A stretch of DNA of 64,000 nucleotides from Spirochaetia bacterium (GTDB lineage Bacteria > Spirochaetota > Spirochaetia > CADAEX01): NCBI GenBank assembly GCA_963662795.1, contig OY759746.1, positions 1,952,001-2,016,000 of the forward strand, given 5' to 3'. The translations under genes and the position numbers were made by a program. Positions within the stretch are counted from its first letter, which is position 1. Each line of letters opens with the position of its first letter. This document shows positions 1,961-63,960 of the stretch, piece by piece. The notes below the pieces were generated by a model, which saw only the letters and a program-made list of their open reading frames with translations, searched no databases and was not told where the DNA came from.

Positions 1961-2155
1961 AGCGAATGGCCGGTTCCTGCTGTTTCTAAGGAAACAGCCT
2001 CCACCCAAATTGCCGAAATAATTCATGTTAAGAATAATGGAATAGAGTATAAACTTTTGGAGTAAAAAACACCATCGGCAACTTCGGTCATTCGCGAGAC
2101 GTTATCCACAATATCATCGCAAGAGGCATCGCCCGGACCTCCGGCCAACGGGCGA
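1891..2155. repeat. Junction R3 (D; gamma; B)
   Basis: TAAC 1957, GTT 2101. Confidence 0.88.
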
Positions 2156-2229
2156 AGAAAATAGAATTTGCTGTATAATATACTTTATACATAACATATA
2201 TAGTTTTCTATTTATTTAATATGTTAGAA
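2156..2229 (+). other. attI-like leader (inner-tier insertion site)
   Basis: ATATATAGTTTTCT..TTATTTAATAT|GTTAGAA; GTTAGAA complements R'' TTCTAAC at 3203. Confidence 0.65.
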
Positions 2230-2314
2230 AGACCCTGCGGGCGGCAGAGAATAAATATCCTTTATGTCTTATTAAAAAAAGTCGATTCTTTATGGATACA
2301 TTGAAGGAGTCCTT

Positions 2315-3193
2315 ATGAAAAAAGTATTTTTTTTTGGTGTACTTGCAGGTTGTGTTTTCTCTGCATTAATTTTCATAGGTTATTATGCGGTAACAAACCG
2401 TTCTTCAAAGAATAATATTGTTTCTCCTGAAGTTCAACACCAGGTTATACAAAATATTCAAGACATAAACAAAATTCTGGATTTTGCGGATGATAGTCTT
2501 GCAGAGTATACGGACAATCTTATGGAAGTACGCGAAATATTATTAAATGCAGATGCCAAGAAATACATAAATAAGGAAGAAAAACAGAAGATTACCGGTT
2601 TATGTGAAAAAGGTCTTCAGATAATTGAAACAGCAAAGTTTAATACTCTTCCAGTATTTCATAATAATTGTGATGGAGAATACAACAGGGTTATTCCGGT
2701 AACGCTTGATGCTGCAAAACCAACATACAAACTTACCATATCGTGTATGAATTTTAATAGGAATGTAGTTAATGTATTTATTAATAGTTTAGCATCTGAA
2801 ACAGGATTAGAAAATAATATTGCTGAACTTGATAAAATAGTATCTGCCGTTACATTAGAACGCGCACAACTGGGTGCTTATAAAAACAGGCTTACACATT
2901 CTCTTGAAACAGCAGAGGTTTTATCAAAAAAAAATGCGAACGAGAGACAGACTGAAATAAACAGAATCATTCAAAAAATAAAAACTGAACAACTGGTTCT
3001 GAGCGTTCAAAGCGCTAATGGAATATATTGTTTTGAAGACAGACAACAAATTCAAGTAAACTTTGATGAACTGAATAATGAATTAAACAGAATTAATGCA
3101 TTCTCACAAAAAACAATTGCAAAGAATAACAATATTTCCTTACTCTCTCAGTCAGATGCTGAAAACGCAATGCTGTATCTTGTAAAAAAATAG
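2315..3193 (+). CDS. Membrane-anchored flagellin-domain protein
   Basis: N-terminal TM; RAQLGAYKNRL and SVQSANGIY..EDRQQIQV flagellin motifs. Confidence 0.7.
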   Translation: MKKVFFFGVLAGCVFSALIFIGYYAVTNRSSKNNIVSPEVQHQVIQNIQDINKILDFADDSLAEYTDNLMEVREILLNADAKKYINKEEKQKITGLCEKGLQIIETAKFNTLPVFHNNCDGEYNRVIPVTLDAAKPTYKLTISCMNFNRNVVNVFINSLASETGLENNIAELDKIVSAVTLERAQLGAYKNRLTHSLETAEVLSKKNANERQTEINRIIQKIKTEQLVLSVQSANGIYCFEDRQQIQVNFDELNNELNRINAFSQKTIAKNNNISLLSQSDAENAMLYLVKK

Positions 3194-3202
3194 CAATAAG
3201 AT

Positions 3203-3330
3203 TTCTAACAACTGCTTCAGCCTGATATTTTCTTTGTCACGATTTGTGCTAACTCGCTGCACTCGTCTTACGCACAAATCGCGCCAATCCGCTACGCGGC
3301 GCGAAAATACAGGTTAAGCAAATGTTAGAC
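3203..3330. repeat. Classical attC (inner)
   Basis: TTCTAAC-AACTG-CTTCAGCC...GGTTAAG-CAAAT-GTTAGAC. Confidence 0.85.
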
Positions 3331-3449
3331 AGACCCTTCGGGCAGATAAGAAAAAAACGCATTTCCGAAAGGAACCAAAAGGTGTTATACTTTGAGTGTG
3401 TTTGAATAAGCTTGAATACAGCCTTACAAAGACTAATTGGAGGTAAAGC

Positions 3450-3821
3450 ATGAATTTAGGAGCCTTTTCGGTTAGCTTAGCCGTAAAAAACATTGTTTCA
3501 TCAAAAGAATTTTATACAAAACTTGGATTTACTGAATTCGGGGGAGATATTAGTCAAAACTGGTTGATATTGAAAAATGGCGATTGTATTATTGGATTAT
3601 TCCAAGGTATGTTTGATGGTAATATATTAACATTCAATCCAGGATGGGATCAAAATTCAAATATTATTAACAACTACACAGATATAAGACTTATACAAGA
3701 AAAAGTGATTCAAAATGGAATAACACCTACTTCATTAGTAGAACAGGATAGTAAAGGACCTGCAAGCTTTACCTTAATAGATCCGGACGGTAATACAATT
3801 CTAGTCGATCAACACATTTAG
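3450..3821 (+). CDS. VOC/glyoxalase family protein
   Basis: SLAVKNI..SKEFYTKLGF; GPASFTLIDPDGN. Confidence 0.85.
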   Translation: MNLGAFSVSLAVKNIVSSKEFYTKLGFTEFGGDISQNWLILKNGDCIIGLFQGMFDGNILTFNPGWDQNSNIINNYTDIRLIQEKVIQNGITPTSLVEQDSKGPASFTLIDPDGNTILVDQHI

Positions 3822-3830
3822 AAACGAAAT

Positions 3831-3943
3831 GTCTAACAACGAGTTCGAGCGCGACAACCCTATGTCACGATTCTTGCTTTTCCGGCATTCGCCGGGCAAG
3901 AATCGTGACATTGAACGCGTTGCGGCTCAATTCAATGTTAAAA
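3831..3943. repeat. Classical attC (inner)
   Basis: GTCTAAC-AACGA-GTTCGAGC...GCTCAAT-TCAAT-GTTAAAA; long internal stem. Confidence 0.85.
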
Positions 3944-3961
3944 AAAATAGAAACGGGGGAA

Positions 3962-4253
3962 GTCCGGCCTTGGCGTTGCCGTGCGGCCCTGGACAAGAAG
4001 CGATGATACTGGTGGATAACAGCGATTATTTCGCTGCGCTCCCTTTGGTCGCTTGGGCTCCTGCCAGTTGAGCTGGCAGATCGCCATATTTTGTTTTCAT
4101 AAAACCAGAACGACATGTGTTTTATGCTTTTTATGTTTGAAAAATCAAATAAATGTATTTTAGAGTTTAGCAACAAAACATCGAATAATCGCGGGACGTT
4201 ATCCACAATGCCCCCACAAGATGCGATCGCCCGGACCTCCGGCCGACGGGCGA
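3962..4253. repeat. Junction R4 (B; beta; A)
   Basis: TAAC 4017, GTT 4198. Confidence 0.9.
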
Positions 4254-5286: not shown

Positions 5287-5562
5287 GTCCGGCCTTGGCT
5301 TCCAGCCGTGCGGCCTGGACAAGAAGTGGGGACACTGGTGGATAACAGAGGATAATGCGCTTCGCTCGGAGTCCCTCGCTTGGCCTGCGGCACATTTTAC
5401 TTTTTTTAAATTATGACAATTTTTGTTATATAGTTTTCAATTTTATCACTACGGATAAAAAATGTTTTTAGAGTTTGTGACGTAAAACGTCGCTTATCCT
5501 CAGGACGTTATCCACAATGCCCCCACAATAGAAAATCGCCCGGACCTCCGGCCGACGGGCGA
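5287..5562. repeat. Junction R5 (A; alpha; A)
   Basis: TAAC 5343, GTT 5507. Confidence 0.9.
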
Positions 5563-5587
5563 GAAAAAAACTTAAGGATTAGTAAAA

Positions 5588-6601: not shown

Positions 6602-6895
6602 GTCCAGCCTTGGCTCCGCCGTGCGGCTTGGACAAGAAGTGGGGGCACTGGTGGATAACAGCGGTTAAAGCGCTTCGCTCGGAGTACCTCGCTTGGGCTC
6701 CTGGCTGTTGAGCAGCCAGTTCGCCAAACAGCGTAGGATTTTGAACTGTAACTTTATAAAACAACAAGTTTTAAACGACAATAAATAAAAGCTTTGAGTT
6801 TTCTATTCTTCGCCTACGATGCTTCGCTTAACCGCGGGACGTTATCCACAATGCCCCCACAAGAGAAATCGCCCGGACCTCCGGCCGACGGGCGA
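6602..6895. repeat. Junction R6 (A; alpha'; A)
   Basis: TAAC 6656, GTT 6841. Confidence 0.9.
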
Positions 6896-7602: not shown

Positions 7603-7875
7603 GTCCGGCCTTGGCTTCCAGCCGTACGGCCTGGACAAGAAGTGGGGGCACTGGTGGATAACAGAGGATAAAGCGCTTCGCTCGGAGTACCTCGCTTGGG
7701 CTTCGCCACACATCGTAGAGAGTGAACAACACCAACTATATACAACCAGTTTTAAAAGAAAAATAAAACAGCTTTGAATATCAATGCTTATCTTACGATG
7801 CGTCGCTTATCCTCAGGACGTTAGCAGCAATACGTCCCCAAGAGAACGCCGCCCGGACCTCCGGCCGACGGGCGA
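7603..7875. repeat. Junction R7 (A; alpha; E)
   Basis: TAAC 7659, GTT 7820. Confidence 0.9.
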
Positions 7876-7931: not shown

Positions 7932-9215
7932 ATGGCATGGTTTTATGAGCACAAAGAAATTATAACTCCAAATGAAATTAAACAGCTTATAAAAGAGAGT
8001 ATAAAAGAAGCGCAAAGTAGAATATCTGGTAATCCCAAAAAGGTATTATTATTACCGCCAGATATTACAAGGGCACATAGTGGTGCAGGGTGGATAACGG
8101 AAGAATTATTTTATCAATTATCTGAAAAATCAAATGTTTGGATTATGCCCACTTTAGGGCAGCATTCAGCACACACAGATGAGCAGAATAAATGGATGTT
8201 TGGAAGCATTCCAAAAAATAGAATATTAAAACATAACTGGAGAACTGATTGTATCAAGCTTGGAACAATACAAGCAGATTACGTTAGGCAAGTAACAGGG
8301 GATAGAGCTGATTGGGATATCCCTGTAACGGTAAATAAAATACTTTTTGAAGAAAAATGGGATATTATTATAAACATTGGGCATGTTGTGCCGCATGAAG
8401 TCTTAGGCTATGCTAATCATAATAAAAATTACTTTATAGGCCTAGGCGGAAAAGAAATTATTTGCGCTTCTCATATGGCCGCAGCCTGCTATGGTATTGA
8501 GAATAATTTAGGAAGGCTTGTTACACCGCTTCGTCATTGTTTTAACAAAGCAGAAAGTGAATATCTTAGTGAGCTACCAGACTTTTACATACAACTGGTA
8601 ATGGGATATAATAATCAGAGTAAACTAGTACACAAGGGATTCTATTGCGGGGATGATCTTGATACATATCTACTTGCTGCTGAACACTCAAAGAAAGAAA
8701 ACATTGCAATAGTTGAACCACTTAAAAAAGTAATCGCAGTAATGCAAGGTGATGAATTTTACAGTACATGGGTTGCTAATAAAGCAATTTATAGAACAAG
8801 AAAAGCAATGGCCGATGATGGTGAATTGATTATAATAGCTCCGGGATTAAAAAGATTCGGGGAACAGGAAGCGGTTGATAGAATAATCAGAAAATATGGC
8901 TATACTGGAACAGAAAATATTATGAAGCTCTGGAGAAAAGAACCAGAATTACAAGATCTTTCTCATGCCACAGCACACTTAATACATGGTTCTACGGAAG
9001 GAAGATTTAAAGTTACGTATGCACCTGGGTATTTGCAGAAAGAAGATATAGAGAATGTAAATTATAGATATTTAAAATATGAAGAAGCGGTAAAAGAATA
9101 TTGTCCTGAAAAATTATCAAATGGGTATAATACTCTTCCAAGTGGTGAAAAAGTATATTTTATTGAAACACCGTCAGCCGGTCTTTGGAGCACAAAAGAA
9201 AAAATGAATTATTAA
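7932..9215 (+). CDS. LarA-like (lactate racemase domain, DUF2088) protein
   Basis: PPDITR, LGQH, VVPHEVLG motifs. Confidence 0.75.
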   Translation: MAWFYEHKEIITPNEIKQLIKESIKEAQSRISGNPKKVLLLPPDITRAHSGAGWITEELFYQLSEKSNVWIMPTLGQHSAHTDEQNKWMFGSIPKNRILKHNWRTDCIKLGTIQADYVRQVTGDRADWDIPVTVNKILFEEKWDIIINIGHVVPHEVLGYANHNKNYFIGLGGKEIICASHMAAACYGIENNLGRLVTPLRHCFNKAESEYLSELPDFYIQLVMGYNNQSKLVHKGFYCGDDLDTYLLAAEHSKKENIAIVEPLKKVIAVMQGDEFYSTWVANKAIYRTRKAMADDGELIIIAPGLKRFGEQEAVDRIIRKYGYTGTENIMKLWRKEPELQDLSHATAHLIHGSTEGRFKVTYAPGYLQKEDIENVNYRYLKYEEAVKEYCPEKLSNGYNTLPSGEKVYFIETPSAGLWSTKEKMNY

Positions 9216-9273
9216 AATCGTGAATATGAATATCTTAATTAATTACATAATTTATTAAAAACAAAAGGATTGT

Positions 9274-10491
9274 ATGACAGCACAAGGTTTTATTGAATTG
9301 GAAGAAAAATACGGAGCACATAATTATCATCCGTTACCAGTAGTATTGAAAAAAGGTAAAGGTGTTTTTGTATGGGATGTTGAAGGTAAAAAATATTTTG
9401 ATTTTTTGTCAGCTTATTCAGCAATAAATCAGGGACATTGTCATCCTAAAATAATAAATGCGATGATAAGGCAAGCAATGACTTTAACTCTTACGTCACG
9501 GGCGTTTTATAATAATAAGCTTGGACTTTATGAAAAGTATGTTACTGAATATTTTGGATACGATAAAATACTTCCAATGAATACAGGAGCAGAAGCTTGT
9601 GAAACAGCATTAAAACTATGCCGTAAGTGGGCATACGTAAAAAAAGGTATTAAAGAAAATCAGGCAAAAATTATAGTATGCGAAAACAATTTTCATGGAC
9701 GTACTGTTACTGTAATTTCCATGTCAAATGACCCAGACTCTTATAATGGATTTGGGCCGTTTACCCCTGGATTTATAAAAATACCTTATAATGATTTAAA
9801 AGCTCTTGGAAAGGTACTTGAAGACCCTAATGTGGCTGGATTTCTTGTCGAACCGATACAGGGAGAGGCTGGGGTTTTTGCACCAGCTGACGGTTATTTA
9901 AGAAAAGCATATGAAATGTGCAAAGAAAAAAATGTATTATTTATTGCAGATGAAGTGCAAACAGGTATTGCCAGAACCGGAAAGCTACTTGCCTGTGATT
10001 ATGAAAATGTGCATCCTGATATTTTGATTCTTGGCAAAGCTCTTTCAGGAGGCGTCTTCCCGATATCTGCTGTGCTTTCAGATAATGAAATAATGCTGTG
10101 TATCAAACCTGGAGAGCATGGCTCCACATACGGAGGCAATCCTATTTCTGCTGAAATAGCCATTGCAGCTCTTAAAATTGTAAAAGAAGAACAGCTCGCA
10201 GAAAAAGCAGCAAAACTTGGTGAAATATTCAGGAAGGAATTAAGTGAAATAAATTCACCAATAATTGAGGAAATAAGAGGTAAGGGATTACTTAATGCAA
10301 TAGTTATAAAACCTTTAAAAGAAAAAAATGCTTGGGATGTTTGTTTAAAAATGGCAGAAAACGGATTATTGGCGAAACCAACTCATAAGAGAATAATCCG
10401 ATTAGCTCCTCCTTTGGTAATTACTGAAAGCCAAATACATGAAGCCATAAAAATAATAAAAAAATCGATATTGTTTTTTGATATTCAATAA
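9274..10491 (+). CDS. rocD: Ornithine--oxo-acid aminotransferase
   Basis: [55 protein letters not shown]. Confidence 0.93.
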
Positions 10492-10554: not shown

Positions 10555-10802
10555 GTCCAGCCTTGGCTCCGCCGTGCGGCTTGGACAAGAAGGGGACGTA
10601 CTGCTGCTAACAGCGAATGACCGGTTCCGGCTGTTTCTAAGGAAACAGCCTCCACTCAAATTGCCGAAATAATACATGTTAAGAATAATGGAATAGAGTA
10701 TAAACTTTTGGAGTGAAAAACACCATCGGCAACTTCGGTCATTCGCTGTTAGCAGCAGTACGTCCCCAAGAGAAAACGCCCGGACCTCCGGCCGACGGGC
10801 GA
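10555..10802. repeat. Junction R8 (E; gamma; E), perfected palindrome
   Basis: 10592-10623 is the exact reverse complement of 10736-10767. Confidence 0.9.
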
Positions 10803-12576: not shown

Positions 12577-12845
12577 GTCCGGCCTTGGCTCCGCCGTGCG
12601 GCCTGGACAAGAAGGGGACGTACTGCTACTAACAGAGGATAATTCGCTGCGCTCGGAGTACCTCGCTTGGCCTTCGGCATATTTTACTTTCACTTAATCC
12701 AGACAATTTGTGTTTTATCCTTTTTAATGGAAAAAAACAGGAAACGGTTTATAAAGTTTGAGCCGTAAAACATCGCTTATCCTCGGGACGTTATCCACAA
12801 TATCATCGCAAGAGAACACCGCCCGGACCTCCGGCCAACGGGCGA
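12577..12845. repeat. Junction R9 (E; alpha; B)
   Basis: TAAC 12630, GTT 12790. Confidence 0.9.
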
Positions 12846-15240: not shown

Positions 15241-15348
15241 ATCTAACAATCAGTTGGAGAAGATTTGACTTTTATCACGGTTCTTGCTGATGCAAGAACA
15301 CGCGCCAACTCTATCGGGGTAGTCAAGCAGCTCAACTGAACGTTATAA
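15241..15348. repeat. Classical attC (inner)
   Basis: ATCTAAC-AATCA-GTTGGAG...CTCAAC-TGAAC-GTTATAA. Confidence 0.8.
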
Positions 15349-15371: not shown

Positions 15372-15667
15372 GTCCGGCCTTGGCGTTGCCGTGCGGCCCT
15401 GGACAAGAAGCGATGATACTGGTGGATAACAGCGGTTCAAGCGCTTCGCTCGGAGCACCTCGCTTGGCCTTCGGCAAACATCGTAGGATTTTATCTACAT
15501 AATTATAGCGTAACAAGTTTTAACAGGCGATAAATAAAAACTTTGTGTTTTTCATTCTTGGTCTACGATGCTTCGCTTAACCGCGGGGCGTTATGCGAAA
15601 GGCTGGCCGAAGAGGAATAGGCTGGGGGCGGGGGAGAGGAAGACGCCGCCGCACATCGTGTGCGCCG
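15372..15667. repeat. Junction R10 (B; alpha'; D)
   Basis: TAAC 15427, GTT 15590. Confidence 0.88.
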
Positions 15668-16072
15668 AAGAAAAATTAATAAACTGAGAGTTTTATAATC
15701 TGTAAGAGTGTTTGTATAAATTACCATTATAAAAGCAGAAAAAATGAAAATATAATATTATTTTAGTAGTTCCTTTCGTGTGATTTGATTATGGATTGGG
15801 TAAAAAACAAAAAAAATAAATCGCATAAAATGTAATATTTTCTTGTAAATGAAAATTATTTGGGATAAAGGTGAAAATAAAACTCTTAAGCTTGAAAGAT
15901 ATATTTCTTTCAAGATATTTGCGGATTTGATTCTGGGGCTAGTTATAAAGTTAATTTGCAAAATATTAACCTTGGAATATAGCTGATTATGATAATTTTC
16001 ATCGTCTCACACATCCATGTGTTCGACGAAGACCGCCCCAGCCAAGAAGAGCCGGCCAGCCCATCGCATAAC
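15590..16072. other. ORF-less outer unit (arm D), copy 2
   Basis: Near-identical to 1477-1960. Confidence 0.8.
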
Positions 16073-16306
16073 AGCGATTATTTCGCTGCGCTCCCTGTGG
16101 TCGCTTGGGCTCCTGCCAGTTGAGCTGGCAGATCGCCATATTTTGTTTTCATAAAACCGGAACAACATGTGTTTTATGCTCTTCAAGTTTGTAAAAACCA
16201 AATAAAAGTATTTTAGAGTTTAGTCACAAAACATCGAATAATCGCGAGACGTTATGCACAATATCATCGCAAGAAGAAATCGCCCGGACCTCCGGCCGAC
16301 GGGCGA
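16003..16306. repeat. Junction R11 (D; beta; K)
   Basis: TAAC 16069, GTT 16251. Confidence 0.88.
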
Positions 16307-17748: not shown

Positions 17749-18022
17749 GTCCAGCCTTGGCTTCCAGCCGTGCGGCTTGGACAAGAAGCGATGATACTGG
17801 TGCATAACAGAGGATAAAGCGCTTCGCTCGGAGTACCTCGCTTGGGCTTCGCCACACATCGTAGGTTTTAACTACTCCGATAAGAAGTAGCAAGTTTTTA
17901 AAATAAATAAATTACAACATTGTGTTGTCTATTCGTGGACTACGATGCGTCGCTTATCCTCAGGACGTTATACGTAATGGCCAGGCAAGAGAAAATCGCC
18001 CGGACCTCCGGCCGACGGGCGA
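17749..18022. repeat. Junction R12 (K; alpha; F)
   Basis: TAAC 17805, GTT 17967. Confidence 0.9.
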
Positions 18023-20012: not shown

Positions 20013-20304
20013 GTCCGGCCTTGGCTTCCAGCCGTACGGCTCGGGCAAGAAGCCTGGCCACTCCGTATAACAGCGATTATTTCGCTGCGCTCCCTTTGGT
20101 CGCTTGGGCTCCTGCCAGTTGAGCTGGCAGATCGCCATATTTTGTTTTCATAAAACCAGAACGACATGTATTCTATGCTTTTTATGTTTGAAAAATCAAA
20201 TAAATGTATTTTAGAGTTTAGCCACAAAACATCGAATAATCGCGAGACGTTATCCACAATGCCCCCACAAGAGAAAATCGCCCGGACCTCCGGCCGACGG
20301 GCGA
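20013..20304. repeat. Junction R13 (F; beta; A)
   Basis: TAAC 20068, GTT 20249. Confidence 0.9.
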
Positions 20305-22807: not shown

Positions 22808-23083
22808 GTCCGGCCTTGGCTTCCAGCCGTGCGGCCTGGACAAGAAGTGGGGGCACTAGTGGATAACAGCGGTTCAAGCGCTGCGCTCGGTTTACCTCGC
22901 TTGGGCTTCGCCAAACATCGTAAGCTTGAAACTACGACTTTGAGAAACAACAAGTTTTTTGAAGAAAGAAATTACATCATAATATTAAATATTCTTGGTC
23001 TACGATGCTTCGCTTAACCGCGGGACGTTATGCTCAATACCAGCCGCAAGAGGAAATCGCCCGGACCTCCGGCCAACGGGCGA
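22808..23083. repeat. Junction R14 (A; alpha'; G)
   Basis: TAAC 22864, GTT 23027. Confidence 0.9.
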
Positions 23084-23986: not shown

Positions 23987-24259
23987 GTCCAGCCTTGGCG
24001 TTGCCGTGCGGCTTGGACAAGAAGCGGCTGGTACTGGAGCATAACAGAGGATAATTCGCTGCGCTCGGAGTACCTCGCTTGGCCTGCGGCACACATCGCA
24101 GGTTTTAAACTATAACTTCAATAAATAACCAGTTCTGGTTGAAAAATAGTTCAGCTATTAGATAATAATGCTATATCTACGATGCGTCGCTTATCCTCAG
24201 GACGTTATCCACAATATCATCGCAAGATGAGATCGCCCGGACCTCCGGCCCACGGGCGA
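23987..24259. repeat. Junction R15 (G; alpha; B)
   Basis: TAAC 24042, GTT 24204. Confidence 0.9.
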
Positions 24260-25420: not shown

Positions 25421-25691
25421 GTCCGGCCTTGGCGGTGCCGTGCGGCCTGGACAAGAAGCGATGATACTGGTGGATAACAGAGGATAATGCGCTTCGCTCC
25501 CTTTGGTCGCTTGGGCTTCGCCACACATCGTAGGTTTTGAACTACATTGTTTAGAAACAACAGGCTTTAAAAGAGACAAATTACAACTTTGGAATATTCA
25601 TTCTTGGGCTACGATGCGTCGCTTATCCTCGGGACGTTATACGAAAAATCCCAGCAAGAGAACATCGCCCGGACCTCCGGCCAACGGGCGA
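25421..25691. repeat. Junction R16 (B; alpha; I)
   Basis: TAAC 25475, GTT 25636. Confidence 0.9.
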
Positions 25692-28312: not shown

Positions 28313-28582
28313 GTCCAGCCCTTGGCGTTGCCGTGCGGTCTGGACAAGAAGCTGGGATTCTTCGTATAACAGAGGATACTGCGCTTCGCTCGGAGAACCT
28401 CGCTTGGCCTTCGGCATATTTTGCATTTTTATAATCAACACAATTAATAAAATAATGTTTTCAATATTGATAAAACAAAATATTGAAGCTTTTAGTATTT
28501 TGCAAAACATCGCGTATCCTCGGGACGTTATACGTAATGGCCAGGCAAGAGAAAATCGCCCGGACCTCCGGCCGACGGGCGA
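28313..28582. repeat. Junction R17 (I; alpha; F)
   Basis: TAAC 28367, GTT 28527. Confidence 0.9.
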
Positions 28583-30219: not shown

Positions 30220-30402
30220 GTCCAGCCTTGGCTCCGCCGTGCGGCTTGGACAAGAAGCCTGGCCACTACGTATAACACAGCATAACCGGTTCCGGCCATT
30301 CGGCCTTCACCAAAATTGCTTCGCAACTTCGGTTATGCTGGGAACGTTATGCTCAATACCAGCCGCAAGAAGAAATCGCCCGGACCTCCGGCCGACGGGC
30401 GA
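30220..30402. repeat. Junction R18 (F; minimal delta core; G)
   Basis: TAAC 30273, GTT 30346. Confidence 0.88.
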
Positions 30403-32037: not shown

Positions 32038-32143
32038 ATATAACAATCAGTTGGAGCAGATTTGACTTTTATCACAGTTCTTGTAGAGTAAGAACACTCG
32101 CCAACCTTTCAAGGTAAATAAACTGCTCAGCTGGGCGTTAAAA
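32038..32143. repeat. Classical attC (inner)
   Basis: ATATAAC-AATCA-GTTGGAGC...GCTCAGC-TGGGC-GTTAAAA; same family as 15241. Confidence 0.8.
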
Positions 32144-32167: not shown

Positions 32168-32439
32168 GTCCAGCCTTGGCTCCGCCGTGCGGCTTGGACA
32201 AGAAGCGGCTGGTACTGGAGCATAACAGCGGTTAAAGCGCTGCGCTCGGATTACCTCGCTTGGCCTGCGGCAAACATCGTAGAGTTCAAAATACAACTGT
32301 ATGTAACACCAGTTTTGAAAACAATAAATAAAAACTTTCTGTTATCTATTCTTAATCTACAATGCTTCGCTTAACCGCGGGACGTTATCCACAATGCCCC
32401 CACAAGAGAAAATCGCCCGGACCTCCGGCCGACGGGCGA
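32168..32439. repeat. Junction R19 (G; alpha'; A)
   Basis: TAAC 32223, GTT 32384. Confidence 0.9.
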
Positions 32440-33888: not shown

Positions 33889-34157
33889 GTCCGGCCTTGG
33901 CTCCGCCGTACGGCCTGGACAAGAAGTGGGGGCACTGGTGGATAACAGCGGTTAAAGCGCTGCGCTCGCAAGCTCGCTTGGGCTCCTGCCAGTTGTGCTG
34001 GCAGTTCGCCAAACATCGCAGCTTGAAATAAAAGTAAAAGAACTAAACAGCTTGTGGAATAATGTAATCATAAATTGCGATGCTTCGCTTAACCGCGGGA
34101 CGTTATCCACAATGCCCCCACAAGAGGAAATCGCCCGGACCTCCGGCCGACGGGCGA
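33889..34157. repeat. Junction R20 (A; alpha'; A)
   Basis: TAAC 33943, GTT 34102. Confidence 0.9.
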
Positions 34158-36106: not shown

Positions 36107-36379
36107 GTCCGGCCTTGGCTTCCCGCCGTGCGGCCTGGACAAGAAGTGGGGCACTGGTGGATAACAGAGGATAAGGCGCTTCGCTCGGAATACCTCGCTT
36201 GGCCTGCGGCAAACATCGTAGATTTTGAACTACAATTGCTATAATTAACAATTTTTTGAAGAAAAATATTGCAACTTTGGAATATTCATTCTTGGGCTAC
36301 GATGCGTCGCTTATCCTCGGGACGTTATCCACAATGCCCCCACAAGAGAAAATCGCCCGGACCTCCGGCCGACGGGCGA
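36107..36379. repeat. Junction R21 (A; alpha; A)
   Basis: TAAC 36162, GTT 36324. Confidence 0.9.
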
Positions 36380-36982: not shown

Positions 36983-37256
36983 GTCCGGCCTTGGCTTCCA
37001 GCCGTGCGGCCTGGACAAGAAGTGGGGGCACTGGTGGATAACAGAGGATAAAGCGCTTCGCTCGGAGTACCTCGCTTGGCCTACGGCACACATCGCAGGT
37101 TTTGAAGTATAACTTCTATAAACAACTAGTTTTAAAAAATAAATACTGCAATTTTAAAAATATTATACATTGACTACGATGCGTCGCTTATCCTCAGGAC
37201 GTTATAAGCAATGTTCCCGCAAGAGAAAATCGCCCGGACCTCCGGCCGACGGGCGA
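36983..37256. repeat. Junction R22 (A; alpha; H)
   Basis: TAAC 37039, GTT 37201. Confidence 0.9.
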
Positions 37257-38244: not shown

Positions 38245-38351
38245 ACATAATAAAAAGATGGAGCAGATTTGACTTTTGGCACGTGTTCTTGCATAGCAAG
38301 AACACGTGCCAATCCTTCAGAACAGTCAAACAGCTTAACTTGGCGCTATGT
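38245..38351. repeat. Degenerate classical attC (inner)
   Basis: Homologous to 15241/32038 (GGAGCAGATTTGACTTT..GTTCTTGC..GCAAGAAC); core sites mutated. Confidence 0.7.
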
Positions 38352-39277: not shown

Positions 39278-39403
39278 ATATAACAAAGAATTCAATCTGA
39301 CATTTCCTTTGTCACGGTTTGTGCGACTAGCATCGCTCATTTTCATGCACAAACCGTGACAAGTCCTCCGGACGCGGAAACGTAGGTTAACTCAATGTTA
39401 AAA
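39278..39403. repeat. Classical attC (inner)
   Basis: ATATAAC..TTCAATCTGAC..TTGTCACGGTTTGTGC..GCACAAACCGTGACAA..GGTTAAC-TCAAT-GTTAAAA. Confidence 0.82.
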
Positions 39404-39445: not shown

Positions 39446-39737
39446 GTCCGGCCTTGGCTCCGCCGTACGGCCTGGACAAGAAGCGGGAACACTGCTTATA
39501 ACAGCGATTATTTCGCTGCGCTCCCTGTGGTCGCTTGGGCTCCTGCCAGTTGAACTGGCAGATCGCCATATTTTGTTTTCTTAAAACCGGAACAACTTAT
39601 GTTTTTTGCTTTTTAAAGTTTGAAAAATACAAATAAAAGTATTTTAGAGTTTAGTCACAAAACATCGAATAATCGCGGGACGTTATAAGCAATGTTCCCG
39701 CAAGAGAGAATCGCCCGGACCTCCGGCCAACGGGCGA
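39446..39737. repeat. Junction R23 (H; beta; H)
   Basis: TAAC 39499, GTT 39682. Confidence 0.9.
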
Positions 39738-41023: not shown

Positions 41024-41276
41024 GTCCAGCCTTGGCTCCGCCGTGCGGCTTGGACAAGAAGCGGGAACACTGCTTATAACAGCGAATGACCGGTTTCGGC
41101 TGTTTCTAAGGAAGCAGCCTCCACCCAAATTGCCAAAATAATGCATGTTAAGAATAATGGAATAGAGTATAAACTTTCAGAGTGAAAAACACTATTGGCA
41201 ACTTCGGTCATTCGCGGGATGTTATAAGCAATGTTCCCGCAAGAGAAAATCGCCCGGACCTCCGGCCGACGGGCGA
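41024..41276. repeat. Junction R24 (H; gamma; H)
   Basis: TAAC 41077, GTT 41221. Confidence 0.9.
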
Positions 41277-43571: not shown

Positions 43572-43827
43572 GTCCGGCCTTGGCTTCCAGCCGTGCGGCC
43601 TGGACAAGAAGCGGGAACACTGCTTATAACAGCGAATGGCCGGTTCCGGCTGTTTCTAAGGAAACAGCCTCCACCCAAATTGCCGAAGTAATACATGTTA
43701 AGAATAATGGAATAGAGTATAAACTTTTGGAGTAAAAAACACCATCGGCAACTTCGGTCATTCGCGAGACGTTATGCTCAATACCAGCCGCAAGAGGCAA
43801 TCGCCCGGACCTCCGGCCAACGGGCGA
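43572..43827. repeat. Junction R25 (H; gamma; G)
   Basis: TAAC 43627, GTT 43771. Confidence 0.9.
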
Positions 43828-44755: not shown

Positions 44756-45047
44756 GTCCGGCCTTGGCGTTGCCGTGCGGCCTGGACAAGAAGCGGCTGG
44801 TACTGGAGCATAACAGCGATTATTTCGCTGCGCTCCTTGTGGTCGCTTGGGCTCCTGCCAGTTGAACTGGCAGATCGCCATATTTTGTTTTAATAAAACC
44901 AGAATGACATGTGTTTTATGTTTTTTAAGTTTGAAAAAACAAATAAATGTATTTTAGAGTTTAGCCACAAAACATCGCATAATCGCGGGACGTTATCCAC
45001 AATATCATCGCAAGAGAAAATCGCCCGGACCTCCGGCCAACGGGCGA
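44756..45047. repeat. Junction R26 (G; beta; B)
   Basis: TAAC 44811, GTT 44992. Confidence 0.9.
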
Positions 45048-46521: not shown

Positions 46522-46628
46522 GTAGAACGAGCAAATGTAGCAGTAAACTTTTTTGGCACACAAATATGCAGTCGCAAATTGTCCGCCAACTCTTCGGGAC
46601 AAAGTTCCAGCTGATTTGGACGTTATAA
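46522..46628. repeat. Classical attC (inner, diverged)
   Basis: GTAGAAC..CAAATGTAGC..GCTGATTTG..GTTATAA. Confidence 0.7.
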
Positions 46629-46653: not shown

Positions 46654-46926
46654 GTCCGGCCTTGGCGTTGCCGTGCGGCCTTGGACAAGAAGCGATGATA
46701 CTGGTGGATAACAGAGGATAATTCGCTGCGCTCGGAGTACCTCGCTTGGCCTACGGCATATTTTGCTATCATCAAACTTGAACAATAAAAGTTAAACCCT
46801 TTTTAAATTTAATAAAGTAGACATAAATGTTTTAAAGTTTGAACCGCAAAACATCGCTTATCCTCGGGACGTTATAAGCAATGTTCCCGCAAGAGAAAAT
46901 CGCCCGGACCTCCGGCCGACGGGCGA
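46654..46926. repeat. Junction R27 (B; alpha; H)
   Basis: TAAC 46709, GTT 46871. Confidence 0.9.
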
Positions 46927-47704: not shown

Positions 47705-47994
47705 GTCCAGCCTTGGCTCCGCCGTGCGGCTTGGACAAGAAGCGGGAACACAGCTTATAACAGCGATTATTTCGCTGCGCTCCCTATGGTCGCTTGGGCT
47801 CCTGCCAGTTGAGCTGGCAGATCGCCATATTTTGTTTTCTTAAAACCGGAACAACATGTGTTTTTACTTTTCAAGATTGATAAAACCAAATAAAAATATT
47901 TTAGAGTTTCGCCACAAAACATCGAATAATCGCGGGACGTTATAAGCAATGTTCCCGCAAGATGCAATCGCCCGGACCTCCGGCCGACGGGCGA
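47705..47994. repeat. Junction R28 (H; beta; H)
   Basis: TAAC 47758, GTT 47939. Confidence 0.9.
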
Positions 47995-48954: not shown

Positions 48955-49239
48955 GTCCAGCCTTGGCTCCGCCGTGCGGCCTGGACAAGAAGCGGGAACA
49001 CAGCTTATAACAGCGGATGACCGGTTTCGGCTGGTGGAGAGTAAAATATAAGGGAAAAACCAGCCTTCACCCAAATTGCCTATCTTGGAAACCTTTTTGA
49101 ATGTTATAAAATATTAGTGAAGAGTTTAATCAGCTGTTGTATAATCAATTGAATAATCCGGCAACTTCGGTCATCCGCGGGACGTTATAAGCAATGTTCC
49201 CGCAAGAGGAGATCGCCCGGACCTCCGGCCGACGGGCGA
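48955..49239. repeat. Junction R29 (H; long gamma variant; H)
   Basis: TAAC 49008, GTT 49184. Confidence 0.88.
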
Positions 49240-50889: not shown

Positions 50890-51144
50890 GTCCAGCCTTG
50901 GCTTCCAGCCGTACGGCCTGGACAAGAAGCGGGAACACTGCTTATAACAGCGAATGGCCGGTTCCGGCTGTTTCTAAGGAAGCAGCCTCCACCCAAATTG
51001 CCGAAATAATAAATGTTAAGAATAATGGAATAGAGTATAAACTTTTAAAGTGAAAAACACCATCGGCAACTTCGGTCATTCGCGGGACGTTCTCCGAAAT
51101 ACCGCCCCAAGAGGAGACCGCCCGGACCTCCGGCCCACGGGCGA
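50890..51144. repeat. Junction R30 (H; gamma; J)
   Basis: TAAC 50945, GTTC 51089. Confidence 0.9.
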
Positions 51145-52044: not shown

Positions 52045-52311
52045 GCCCAAGCCTTGGCGGTGCCGTGCGGCTTGGAAGAAGGGGCGGTACTTCCGAGAAC
52101 AGAGGATAATGCGCTGCGCTCGGAATACCTCGCTTGGGCTTCGCCACACATCGCAGGTTTCGAACTACAACTTCCATTAACAACCAGGTTTTTGAAGAGA
52201 AATACTACAGCTTTAAAATAATAATAATATTCCAACGATGCGTCGCTTATCCTCGGGACGTTAGCAGCAATGCCCCCGCCAGGAGAGAGCTGCGTGCCGT
52301 CCTGGCACGCA
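52045..52311. repeat. Junction R31 (J; alpha; C)
   Basis: GAAC 52097, GTT 52260. Confidence 0.88.
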
Positions 52312-52818: not shown

Positions 52819-53068
52819 AATCAATCTGCCGTCCATGGCAGATTGATTAAGGCGGGGGACACTGCAGCTAACAGCGAATGACCGGTTCCGGCTGTTTCTA
52901 AGGAAGCAGCCTCCACCCAAATTGCCGAAATAATACATGTTAAGAATAATGGAATAGAGTATAAACTTTTGGAGTGAAAAACATCATCGGCAACTTCGGT
53001 CATTCGCGGGACGTTATCCACAATGCCCCCACAAGAGAAAATCGCCCGGACCTCCGGCCGACGGGCGA
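52819..53068. repeat. Junction R32 (C; gamma; A)
   Basis: TAAC 52869, GTT 53013. Confidence 0.88.
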
Positions 53069-55070: not shown

Positions 55071-55343
55071 GTCCGGCCTTGGCTTCCAGCCGTACGGCCT
55101 GGACAAGAAGTGGGGGCACTGGTGGATAACAGCGGTTCAAGCGCTTCGCTCGGATTACCTCGCTTGGCCTTCGGCATATTTTGTTGTCATTAAACACTTC
55201 AGTAAATCTTCTATTCTTTATAAGTATGAGAATAAGAACAAAATTATTATAGAGTTTGAGCCACAAAACATCGCTTAACCGCGGGACGTTATCCACAATG
55301 CCCCCACAAGATGCGATCGCCCGGACCTCCGGCCGACGGGCGA
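55071..55343. repeat. Junction R33 (A; alpha'/alpha mosaic; A)
   Basis: TAAC 55127, GTT 55288. Confidence 0.9.
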
Positions 55344-56228: not shown

Positions 56229-56498
56229 GTCCGGCCTTGGCTCCGCCGTACGGCTAGGACAAGAAGTGGGGACACTGGTGGATAACAGAGGATAATGCGC
56301 TTCGCTCCCTTTGGTCGCTTGGGCTTTGCCACACATCGTAGGTTTTAAACTATAACTTTTAGAAACAATAAATATTTGAAGAAATAAATTACAACTTTGA
56401 GCTTTTGTTTTTTATCTACGATGCGTCGCTTATCCTCGGGACGTTATCCACAATGCCCCCACAAGATGCAATCGCCCGGACCTCCGGCCGACGGGCGA
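56229..56498. repeat. Junction R34 (A; alpha; A)
   Basis: TAAC 56283, GTT 56443. Confidence 0.9.
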
Positions 56499-58152: not shown

Positions 58153-58428
58153 GTCCGGCCTTGGCTCCGCCGTACGGCCTGGACAAGAAGTGGGGGCACT
58201 GGTGGATAACAGAGGATAAAGCGCTTCGCACGGAGTACCTCGCTTGGCCTGACGGCATATTTTACTATCATATAAATCAAAATAATTGATAGTTATCCTT
58301 TTTATATTTTGTTAATAAAATAAAAGCAATTTCTATAGTTATAACCGTAAAACATCGCTTATCCTCGGGACGTTATGCTCAATACCAGCCGCAAGAGGAA
58401 ACCGCCCGGACCTCCGGCCCACGGGCGA
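58153..58428. repeat. Junction R35 (A; alpha; G)
   Basis: TAAC 58207, GTT 58372. Confidence 0.9.
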
Positions 58429-59443: not shown

Positions 59444-59714
59444 GTCCGGCCTTGGCGGTGCCGTGCGGCCTGGACAAGAAGCGGCTGGTACTGGAGCATA
59501 ACAGAGGATAAAGCGCTACGCTCGGAGTACCTCGCTTGGGCTTCGCCACACATCGTAGGTTTTGAACTACAACTTCAATAATCAACAAGTTTTGAAGAAA
59601 AATATTGTAACTTTGAATTATTCATTCTTAGTTTACGATGCGTCGCTTATCCTCAGGACGTTATACGTAATGGCCAGGCAAGAGAAATCGCCCGGACCTC
59701 CGGCCGACGGGCGA
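59444..59714. repeat. Junction R36 (G; alpha; F)
   Basis: TAAC 59499, GTT 59660. Confidence 0.9.
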
Positions 59715-62103: not shown

Positions 62104-62393
62104 GTCCAGCCTTGGCTCCGCCGTGCGGCTTGGACAAGAAGCCTGGCCACTACGTATAACAGCGATTATTTCGCTGCGCTCCCTATGGTCGCTTGGGCTC
62201 CTGCCAGTTGAGCTGGCAGATCGCCATATTTTGTTTTCATAAAACCGGAACGGCATGTATTCTATGCTTTTTAAGTTTGAAAAAATTAAATAAAAGTATT
62301 TTAGAGTTTAGCCACAAAACATCGAATAATCGCGAGACGTTAGCAGCAATACGTCCCCAAGAGAAATCGCCCGGACCTCCGGCCGACGGGCGA
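62104..62393. repeat. Junction R37 (F; beta; E)
   Basis: TAAC 62157, GTT 62339. Confidence 0.9.
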
Positions 62394-63704: not shown

Positions 63705-63960
63705 GTCCGGCCTTGGCTTCCAGCCGTACGGCCTGGACAAGAAGGGGACGTACAGCTGCTAACAGCGAATGACCGGTTCCGGCTGTTTCTAAGGAAGCAG
63801 CCTCCACCCAAATTGCCGAAATAATACATGTTAAAAATAATGGAATAGAGTATAAACTTTTGGAGTGAAAAACACCATCGGCAACTTCGGTCATTCGCGG
63901 GACGTTATGCTCAATACCAGCCGCAAGATGCGATCGCCCGGACCTCCGGCCAACGGGCGA
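63705..63960. repeat. Junction R38 (E; gamma; G)
   Basis: TAAC 63760, GTT 63904. Confidence 0.9.

Follow-up and report, generated by a model that had tools for sequence, protein, structure and literature searches.

The sequence at positions 4017-4201 is most likely one of 194 cassette-end sites of a 333-kb integron-like array, in which a tyrosine recombinase gene and an attI-like half-site form a platform for cassettes that end in sites predicted to fold, the asymmetry of each fold probably being supplied by an internal loop. The array runs along one strand from C1:1847952 to C1:2180709 and makes up 8.5% of a 3.93-Mb single-contig genome. It includes the window, by which we mean the whole stretch of 64,000 nt analysed here (C1:1952001-2016000); positions without the C1 prefix are those of the window unless stated otherwise. 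At its far end (C1:2180709) the array is followed by a transposase-like ORF, identified by eye. At least three stray sites of the same kind lie elsewhere in the genome, one of them truncated and one mixing the stems of two families.

The GC content of the window is 25-37%, and the + strand carries nearly all the long ORFs. Searching 52 ORFs of the window against Pfam gave 39 families, comprising toxin-antitoxin parts (PemK, PIN, Gp49), defence-like and other domains (AIPR, Cap15, cytosine methylase, Roc-COR, kinase), GNATs, a MatE pump and several enzymes. Three public runs of one sample contain the stretch as contigs that break at the repeats; the joints listed in those runs are assembly paths through repeats and were rejected as evidence of recombination. 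A run of a second sample labelled as the same species contributed none of the stretch, which carries no weight as evidence. Small shares of the stretch are also present in two metagenomes.

The anatomy of the site at 4017-4201 can be read directly along the + strand. The left core TAAC (4017-4020) is followed by a single A (4021), the stem strand GCGATTAT (4022-4029), an interior, the complementary stem strand ATAATCGC (4185-4192; 8/8 positions paired), the five bases GGGAC (4193-4197) and the right core GTTA (4198-4201), where the crossover is placed. The A and the GGGAC are the two sides of a 1x5 loop between the core and the stem. Scored with R2, our covariance model of these sites, it gives 131.8 bits (E 2.5e-26).

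The site forms part of a ~300-nt composite repeat, copies of which lie between genes, also on the + strand. The first half of the repeat consists of a GC-rich hairpin, AAGAAG, a 20-nt left tag that ends in TAAC, the single A and the stem; the second half consists of the interior, the complementary stem, five purine-rich bases ending in AC, GTTA with a 20-nt right tag, AAGAG and a second hairpin. In most sites the interior is roughly 100-150 nt, and it falls into a few families. For 4017-4201, the left frame (3962-4020, +) was delimited by repeat families D7 and D12, by sequence and by the tag test described below. It holds the hairpin GTCCGGCC...GGCCCTGGAC (3962-3994), then AAGAAG, and the left tag CGATGATACTGGTGGATAAC (4001-4020). 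The next cassette starts with the right frame (4198-4252, +), which belongs to repeat family D4 (29 copies) and in which a spacer separates the right tag GTTATCCACAATGCCCCCAC (4198-4217) from the hairpin CGCCCGGACCTCCGGCCGACGGGCG (4228-4252). This 3' hairpin motif occurs 34 times in the window. Genome-wide, a looser form of it has 153 occurrences, none of them on the - strand, between contig positions 1850163 and 2180019. Mutual pairing of the two flanking hairpins to extend the stem was ruled out; folding gives separate local hairpins.

R2 was built from alignment A1, which contains 33 window sites and five related Spirochaetia MAG sites. At E <= 1.5e-5 the model matches 38 window sites, every one on the + strand; five of them were absent from the training set. 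One extra match (E 0.43) is at chance level. The sites lie at 327-468, 1315-1480, 1957-2104, 4017-4201, 5343-5510, 6656-6844, 7659-7823, 10608-10751, 12630-12793, 15427-15593, 16069-16254, 17805-17970, 20068-20252, 22864-23030, 24042-24207, 25475-25639, 28367-28530, 30273-30349 (a 77-nt mini site), 32223-32387, 33943-34105, 36162-36327, 37039-37204, 39499-39685, 41077-41224, 43627-43774, 44811-44995, 46709-46874, 47758-47942, 49008-49187, 50945-51092, 52097-52263, 52869-53016, 55127-55291, 56283-56446, 58207-58375, 59499-59663, 62157-62342 and 63760-63907. They are imperfect palindromes, mostly of 142-189 nt (full range 77-189 nt). We refer to them as outer sites, since a second type of site is nested within the cassettes that they bound.

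The original prediction had described a near-invariant 1x5 loop beside the AAC/GTT core. A single A follows AAC in all 38 sites and the 5-nt loop precedes GTT in 37; the one site without a loop is 10608-10751, where the A faces a T and the structure is fully paired. Every loop variant that had been listed is among those counted (GGGAC 22, GAGAC 6, AGGAC 6, and GGAAC, GGGGC and GGGAT once each), as is every listed stem pair, including GAGGATAC/GTATCCTC at 28367-28530. The 8-bp stem next to the loop is perfect in 31 of the 38 sites and paired at 7/8 positions in six. Where the prediction needs correction is the spacing. Its 5/5 for the inner sites stands, but its 4/8 for the outer sites had counted three stem pairs into the spacer, and the unpaired spacers are 1 and 5 nt.

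The same geometry extends over the array. A strict pattern scan (AAC, 1 nt, a perfect 7-bp stem, 5 nt, GTT) of C1:1846000-2185000 gave 173 sites, with A as the 1-nt side in 172. The 167 counts in the (2,6) register are the same sites read one base inward, and each remaining spacer combination occurs at most 15 times. R2 gave 199 matches over the tiled array, all on the + strand, which reduce to the 194 distinct sites when five tile-overlap duplicates are removed.

The predicted covariation of the stems is also found. In alignment A1 (38 rows), four of the seven stem pairs change on both sides (57 cells), a level reached by none of 500 shuffles. Registers slid along the alignment pair at most 46.2% of cells, and RNAalifold independently yields the same stem. 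In the named helices 98.1% of cells are paired, a figure that is somewhat flattering because the 33 window rows had been pre-picked by a perfect-stem filter; the model-defined census, in which 37/38 sites keep the geometry, is the fairer figure. The 1x5 geometry is real, with covarying stems. Motifs within the long interiors are conserved between genomes as well, and a pure spacer role does not account for this conservation.

Long GC-rich structures that stand in an AT-rich genome, have flanking hairpins and conserved motifs in their interiors and all lie on the sense strand of the genes might instead be structured RNAs, terminators or miniature transposable elements. We give this explanation hardly any credence. 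Rfam has no match anywhere in the window, and on nine related loci it matched only two Flavo-1 RNAs and one tRNA, none of them on the array repeats. In addition, the complementarity of the flanks spans each cassette and not each repeat. We scored a tag match where the right tag and the reverse complement of the left tag were within an edit distance of 3. Such a match between the right tag of a site and the left tag of its successor is present in 155 of 172 neighbouring pairs (31/33 in the window), compared with 45/173 for the two tags of a single site and 9.3% for random pairs. The neighbouring pairs that fail to match are mostly at gaps where the strict list omits a site found by R2. Of 124 sites with discordant tags of their own, 108 are concordant with the following site. 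At 4017-4201, for example, the left tag (4001-4020) has its partner in the right tag of the previous site and not in that of its own site, whilst the right tag (4198-4217) has its partner in the left tag of the next site, which ends at 5346.

Duplicated cassettes also end exactly at the cores. With a threshold of >=60% shared cargo 16-mers, 36 pairs of cassettes qualify, including copies in different contexts. In the sets 39/144, 113/130, 68/92 and 24/58/153, identity extends for at least 600 nt inward; it breaks off 3-26 nt outside at the left end and, at the right end, 4-12 nt past the G, which places the boundary within AC|GTTA. These comparisons indicate that the outer repeats are recombination sites with a crossover at the GTT core. 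An outer cassette would accordingly begin with the TT of one GTTA core, end with the G of the following one and carry its own site at the 3' end; with the crossover at G|TT, the bases after GTT are therefore part of the next cassette.

The head of the array has the layout of an integron platform. A half-site, TAGGA-GTTATACGAAAAACCGCGCC, lies ~150 nt past the stop codon of a recombinase gene and carries GTTA and a right tag, without a stem. This tag is complementary to the left tag of the first cassette, which encodes a vapBC-like pair. A terminator or a miniature transposable element accounts for none of the cross-cassette complementarity, the core-bounded duplicates or the recombinase head.

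The gene itself (C1:1846782-1847801, + strand, as the cassettes; 104 kb upstream of the window) encodes a tyrosine recombinase of 339 aa with Pfam domains PF00589 and PF13495. It scores 214.5 bits against NF040815 (cut-off 220) and 200.1 bits against the IntI model TIGR02249, below the cut-off of 265. The protein aligns with VchIntIA (PDB 2a3v) over residues 72-234 and 259-337, with 24 residues where the VchIntIA integrase has 66. Motif distances show the same difference. Between RxxE and HxLRH there are 85-87 residues in 23/23 array-type recombinases from four phyla, against 127 in the canonical IntI proteins that could be measured by regular expression (2/14). Between GKGxKDR and HxLRH there are 59-60 residues in the array-type proteins (10/24 rows, one a duplicate locus), against 100 in IntI (8/14). 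By these alignments, the head recombinase is a divergent relative of the integron integrases that lacks their insertion of ~41 residues.

A tree from a quick search, with an arbitrary root and unresolved deep forks, groups 13 canonical IntI proteins as one clade with 100% support, with the insertion-less proteins unresolved around it. A 99% branch parts IntI and the insertion-less proteins from two Xer-like proteins of this genome (L006 and L007); a third (L005) falls inside the IntI/insertion-less group on a long branch.

A genome search for two IntI-like genes did return two. The second, at C1:412089-413330 and ~1.4 Mb from the array, has the insertion region (175.8 + 195.7 bits against TIGR02249, in two frames), but it is broken by a frameshift and an in-frame TAG. 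It is the only insertion-bearing integrase gene in the genome, and the 339-aa recombinase is the only intact IntI-family gene found adjoining the array. The outer sites might then be long, odd attC sites of an ordinary integron that were moved by this now-broken canonical IntI, with the adjoining recombinase a bystander. The AAC...GTT imperfect palindromes, the G|TT crossover and the cassette logic are all integron-like, as this account would have it. We nevertheless regard it as highly improbable: the broken gene is remote from the array, the array begins ~150 nt beyond the insertion-less recombinase with a matching half-site, and geometry and recombinase recur together in at least 10 loci from two phyla.

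Proteins of two Spirochaetia MAGs are 79% and 54% identical to the recombinase, and many Bacteroidota proteins are 38-49% identical. The 54% relative heads a co-oriented array whose sites read AAC-A-stem...GGAAC-GTT, with tags that match across cassettes, an interior related to that seen here and no flanking hairpins. Four further Spirochaetota loci have either AAC-A...GGAAC-GTT or AAC-AAA...AAAAC-GTT. In Flavobacterium the sites read AAC-A-stem...(A/G)(A/G)AAC-GTT or a 1x4 variant, whilst those of Prolixibacteraceae have a larger asymmetric loop that ends in AC. The sites of both groups are about 125 nt, with the common form AAC-N-stem...NNNAC-GTT, and follow a ACTAGTTA half-site past the recombinase. 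The 1x5 loop is thus no absolute requirement of the family, because the window site at 10608-10751 has no loop and the Bacteroidota loops may be 1x4 or ~3x6.

The distribution of the enzymes also argues against a canonical IntI as the driver of the outer sites. A canonical IntI above the cut-off was found in 18 of 201 sampled Spirochaetota genomes. Relatives of the 339-aa recombinase at E <= 1e-40 were found in 57 genomes besides that of the window, a count that includes some Xer or IntI cross-matches, and the full-length relatives are mostly in genomes other than those with canonical IntI. As far as the accessible text reports, IntegronFinder surveys found almost no integrons in Bacteroidetes, and IntegronFinder 2.0 a single complete one in Bacteroidetes proper (PMC9024848), though the arrays described here are common in that phylum. 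This suggests that the standard attC model is blind to the outer class.

We also examined the canonical-looking sites nested within the outer cassettes. These inner sites were modelled (R1, from alignment A2) after fold-based screening. In a search of the whole genome that scored 150 of 840 first-look candidates, R1 finds 24 canonical-looking attC sites, all on the + strand and all inside the array. In these sites both spacers are 5 nt, the L box has a bulge of one base and the TGTCACG...centre is conserved. The eight in the window are at 99-245, 3203-3330, 3831-3943, 15241-15348, 32038-32143, 38245-38351, 39278-39403 and 46522-46628, the last being weak with a degenerate 5' half. The 5/5 spacers can be seen at 15244-15345, which reads TAAC-AATCA-GTTGGAG...CTCAAC-TGAAC-GTTA. 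Simple palindrome scans for canonical attC (AAC/GTT, 7-8-bp arms, 3-7-nt spacers) gave no enrichment over control regions; they missed the true inner sites because of the L-box bulge.

The outer cassette that is closed by our site (2104-4201) contains two inner cassettes in tandem. The first is closed by the inner site at 3203-3330 (+; TTCTAAC...GTTAGAC; R1 92.9 bits) and the second by that at 3831-3943 (+; GTCTAAC...GTTAAAA; R1 69.5 bits). The DNA fold of the latter gives -31.5 / -32.9 kcal/mol (z -5.65 / -5.90). The ends of the two cassettes match (GTTAGAAA/TTTCTAAC and GTTAGAC/GTCTAAC): the 5' boundary of the second, GTTAGAC, lies within the preceding inner site, where it is the R' that complements the R'' GTCTAAC of 3831-3943. 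The first inner cassette begins at a candidate attI-like dock, the leader ATATAGTTTTCTATTTATTTAATAT at 2198-2225 (+), in which the GTT at 2223-2225 is followed by cassette-specific sequence. An extended -10-like TGCTGTATAAT lies ~50 nt upstream of this dock, and the GTTAGAA at 2223 complements the R'' TTCTAAC of 3203-3330.

Such a promoter-plus-attI-like leader (...TGCTGTATAAT...ATATAGTTTTCTAGTTATTTAATAT-GTT) occurs in 26 copies, every one of them on the + strand within the array. Sequence to the left of the GTT is conserved among the copies and that to the right varies, as expected of attI. A genome search found no copy near the broken IntI gene or anywhere else outside the array. Upstream of 23 inner sites, within the outer cassette that contains each of them, we found an exact 7-mer complementary to the left core in 18 cases. 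In 11 of these 18 the 7-mer is 120-129 nt after the outer GTT, where the leader ends. Around inner cassettes the outer frames stay concordant: the outer tags agree in 15 of 20 intervals, and the remaining five contain outer sites missed by the strict list.

R1 and R2 show no reciprocal cross-match even at E <= 10. Because both models carry much genome-specific sequence, this separates two families of sites and not their geometry alone. The comparison supports the outer sites being a class distinct from the canonical-looking inner attC sites. The original prediction of a second class of site thus fared well, as did its suggestion of a divergent recombinase, given the array-head enzyme without the IntI-specific insertion and the same geometry beside insertion-less relatives in Spirochaetota and Bacteroidota.

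We propose, as a hypothesis, that the two tiers of sites would also be orthogonal; both carry TAAC/GTTA cores. The shared cores also fit another arrangement, in which the insertion-less recombinase acts on outer and inner sites alike. No other intact IntI-family gene adjoins the array, the inner elements are confined to the array within this genome (24/24 sites and 26/26 leaders), and the CTAGTTAT of the inner leader is similar to the half-site ACTAGTTA that follows the Bacteroidota recombinases. We consider one enzyme for both tiers unlikely all the same. Equal 5/5 spacers and a bulged L box are the geometry read by the IntI insertion, which the head enzyme does not have. The genome carries a broken insertion-bearing IntI, and therefore a second enzyme was once present. 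Furthermore, inner cassettes dock at their own leader and never at outer cores, with the 7-nt end complementarity noted above, and the outer frames stay concordant around them.

Set against a single enzyme, a two-system scheme could run as follows, and we put it forward tentatively, as a possibility a little short of an even chance. Two capture systems would be stacked in one array. The outer system would move cassettes, some of which are integrase-less integron platforms (a promoter, an attI-like dock and one or two canonical attC cassettes) once served by an insertion-bearing IntI. The 1x5 loop would then be both a code that separates the recombinases and a strand signal, across Spirochaetota, Bacteroidota and beyond. 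If this is true, the loop replaces extrahelical bases as the signal of strand choice for a whole integron-like family.

By analogy with integrons, the excised circular cassette, once single-stranded, would fold its ends and its site into one long hairpin. In order, this hairpin would comprise ~20 bp of tag pairing up to TAAC/GTTA, the 1x5 loop (A against RRRAC), the covarying stem of 8-11 bp and the interior. On the same analogy, the recombinase would bind two arms, that of TAAC/GTTA and that of the covarying stem. The loop may serve as the mark of asymmetry: it would kink the hairpin and distinguish the two strands and the two arms, fixing orientation. It would keep a 5-nt spacer (7 nt with the AC of the core) on the exchanged strand and cut the other side to 1 nt. 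For the bottom strand, the distance from core to stem would be AC + 5 nt, which corresponds to the 6-8-nt centre typical of tyrosine recombinase sites, and only 3 nt on the opposite side. In integrons the asymmetry comes from the extrahelical bases of the folded attC, which are read by the IntI-specific insertion.

As to the strand that would fold, fold energy and mismatch type give different indications, and the mismatch types do not agree among themselves. Energetically, folding favours the bottom strand in 142 of 171 unique sites; for 5310-5570, for instance, the values are -41.5 (bottom) and -35.4 (top) kcal/mol. Among isolated mismatches of the first helix, 16 are of the G.T type when read on the top strand and one when read on the bottom strand. 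A conserved C.A mismatch in the tag (13/14 rows) would be G.T on the bottom strand.

These observations bear on several questions. On the usual view, integron recombination depends on the IntI-specific insertion, which reads extrahelical bases of the folded attC; here a close IntI relative without the insertion stands at the head of an array. Sites with a 1x5 loop offer a natural comparison for the minimal needs of a tyrosine recombinase on folded single strands, and the nested canonical platforms, as cargo, a direct test case for the orthogonality of recombinases and sites. For rAID-1-type arrays, which are common in Bacteroidota, there is now a concrete site model and a crossover point.

How does the array compare with known systems? 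As in sedentary chromosomal integrons (e.g. the Vibrio superintegron), a recombinase and half-site head a series of co-oriented, mostly promoterless cassettes, which can number up to hundreds; an imperfect palindrome with AAC...GTT cores ends each cassette, with the crossover at G|TT. The homogeneity of sites within the array is also shared, as is a cargo of toxin-antitoxin, defence-like and small enzyme genes. To our knowledge, 194 sites give a cassette richness equal to that of the largest integrons. G|TT-bounded cassettes with complementary ends and a half-site adjoining the recombinase gene are thus integron features found here; the IntI insertion, a match to the IntI model and, for the outer sites, the attC spacer geometry are not. 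Unlike the integrase of chromosomal integrons, the recombinase is without the insertion, under the TIGR02249 cut-off and co-oriented with the cassettes. The sites differ in their length, mostly 142-189 nt, in the 1x5 loop that replaces roughly symmetric spacers, in the ~20-bp end pairing, in the conserved interior and in the extra hairpins on both flanks.

An attC site is defined by R and L boxes, roughly equal spacers of ~5 nt and an extrahelical L-box base. The 24 inner sites resemble this canonical form (R''/L''...L'/R', 5-nt spacers, a one-base L-box bulge and a variable centre), and the inner cassettes are canonical in that the 5' GTTNNNN complements the cassette's own R''. Unlike usual attC arrays, they come as one or two cassettes behind a repeated leader, inside the cassettes of another system, and are not free-standing. 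Sites of the Xer/dif type (e.g. pdif modules) have a double-strand core of ~28 bp with two arms, a 6-8 bp centre and no long hairpin; the outer sites, by contrast, are 77-189-nt imperfect palindromes with arms that covary to keep pairing.

At the protein level, the nearest description is that of an 'integron-like' subgroup of simple tyrosine recombinases in which, according to the accessible text, conservation of the insertion is incomplete (Smyshlyaev et al. 2021, PMC8138268). The insertion-less array recombinases likewise sit with the IntI clade in the quick tree. That text classifies proteins only and, in contrast to the present analysis, describes no arrays or sites for the insertion-less members.

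The rAID-1 arrays are also among the closest known systems. As the accessible text describes them (Ross et al. 2019, bioRxiv 10.1101/471110), they were defined in Bacteroidales, occur in 226 of 423 genomes and consist of a 5' XerD-family tyrosine recombinase and co-directional, low-GC downstream genes, up to 31 of them over somewhat more than 16 kb, the cargo being dominated by orphan immunity genes that counter contact-dependent toxins. Assignment required there a recombinase >=44% identical to B. fragilis BF9343_RS08045 and at least two co-directional downstream genes with GC <=41% and repetitive intergenic sequence. The sites are treated in that text only as sequence motifs; Fig. S4 of Ross et al. 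(motif logos) may show part of outer-type cores. In the text available of a 2025 preprint (PMC12247911), the mechanism of rAID-1 biogenesis is open, and hairpins and integrons both go unmentioned. In the main texts searched we found no published account of how such a site folds, of the 1x5 loop, of the crossover or of canonical platforms nested in cassettes.

Our array has the 5' tyrosine recombinase, the co-directional genes, the low GC and, with 194 repeats, the repetitive intergenic sequence of rAID-1, and in the Bacteroidota loci compared, recombinases 40-47% identical to ours head such arrays. As judged from these likenesses, the outer sites would belong to a separate integron-like system of the rAID-1 kind; to call them non-canonical attC sites, as was done originally, is too narrow a label. 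Unlike the rAID-1 arrays described, this one is in a spirochaete host, has a broader cargo and has its site fold and crossover mapped. It is distinguished by its size (194 sites, 333 kb), the mapped anatomy of the site and the presence of canonical integron platforms as cargo.

The interior of the outer sites, the 194 rAID-1-like recombination sites of the 333-kb array (C1:1847952-2180709, on the genome's single contig, C1), was kept between genomes whose array recombinases are only 54% identical. This was seen in an alignment of 33 outer sites from the window with five from a related Spirochaetia metagenome-assembled genome (L010:5739-10081), and such conservation would not be expected of mere spacer. 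In one conserved interior, CGCTC-GG/CC...CC/GG-TCGCTTGG, GG and CC appear to have been swapped within a small inner hairpin.

The GC-rich frame hairpins that flank the outer sites are replaced in some cassettes. At window 52282-52310 and 52820-52850, and again at C1:1847990-1848030 and 1848790-1848830, cassettes lacking the standard pair carry different hairpins in the same two positions; the stems are unrelated and a GTCC loop is common to them, so the frame hairpins covary. They may represent a protein-binding or RNA feature of the cassette ends. A 481-nt cassette present in three copies in the array (window 15593-16069, C1:1891172-1891653 and C1:2144386-2144867) has its own end-hairpin pair and no convincing ORF; this may be a non-coding cassette.

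Some outer sites are atypical. The site at window 10608-10751 has no 5-nt loop; its halves, own tags included, are reverse complements of each other almost throughout, without the usual C.A mismatch. One arm seems to be a copy of its partner. Beyond the array, at least three outer-type sites stand as strays, at C1:451567-451733 (+), C1:2344556-2344721 (-) and C1:2489623-2489787 (-). One of these is truncated in the loop; another joins a GCGGTT-family left stem to a GAGGATA-family right stem and is thus a chimeric, non-pairing site.

At C1:412089-413330 lies an IntI-like gene that has the insertion region; a frameshift and a TAG codon in frame disrupt it. IS-type transposase ORFs lie immediately 5' of this gene, and its neighbourhood holds neither an inner-type site nor a leader. 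The array itself contains two more genes for tyrosine recombinases, or parts of such genes, on its opposite strand (C1:1881758-1882309 and C1:2050779-2051573, both (-)); the product of the latter groups loosely, on a long branch, with IntI and array-type proteins.

Among the relatives, two Flavobacterium loci carry a Flavo-1 RNA (RF01705) ~3 kb 5' of the array recombinase (L067:2968-3049 and L078:2831-2965). In metagenomes (contigs only, at low depth), landfill and groundwater contigs contain attC sites of the inner type whose arms are those of window 3225-3310 but whose centres differ, and one groundwater run yielded fragments nearly identical to parts of the cassette genes in window 7959-10105.

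The leader of the inner tier occurs 26 times, each time inside an outer cassette: at window 2130-2225 and in 25 other copies in C1:1878345-2170064. It comprises ~75 conserved nt, with an extended -10-like element, TGCTGTATAAT, and an attI-like end in which TTATTTAATAT is followed by GTT. This GTT is the exact docking point of canonical attC cassettes. Leader plus docked attC cassettes are in effect integron platforms that lack an integrase and travel as cargo of outer cassettes.
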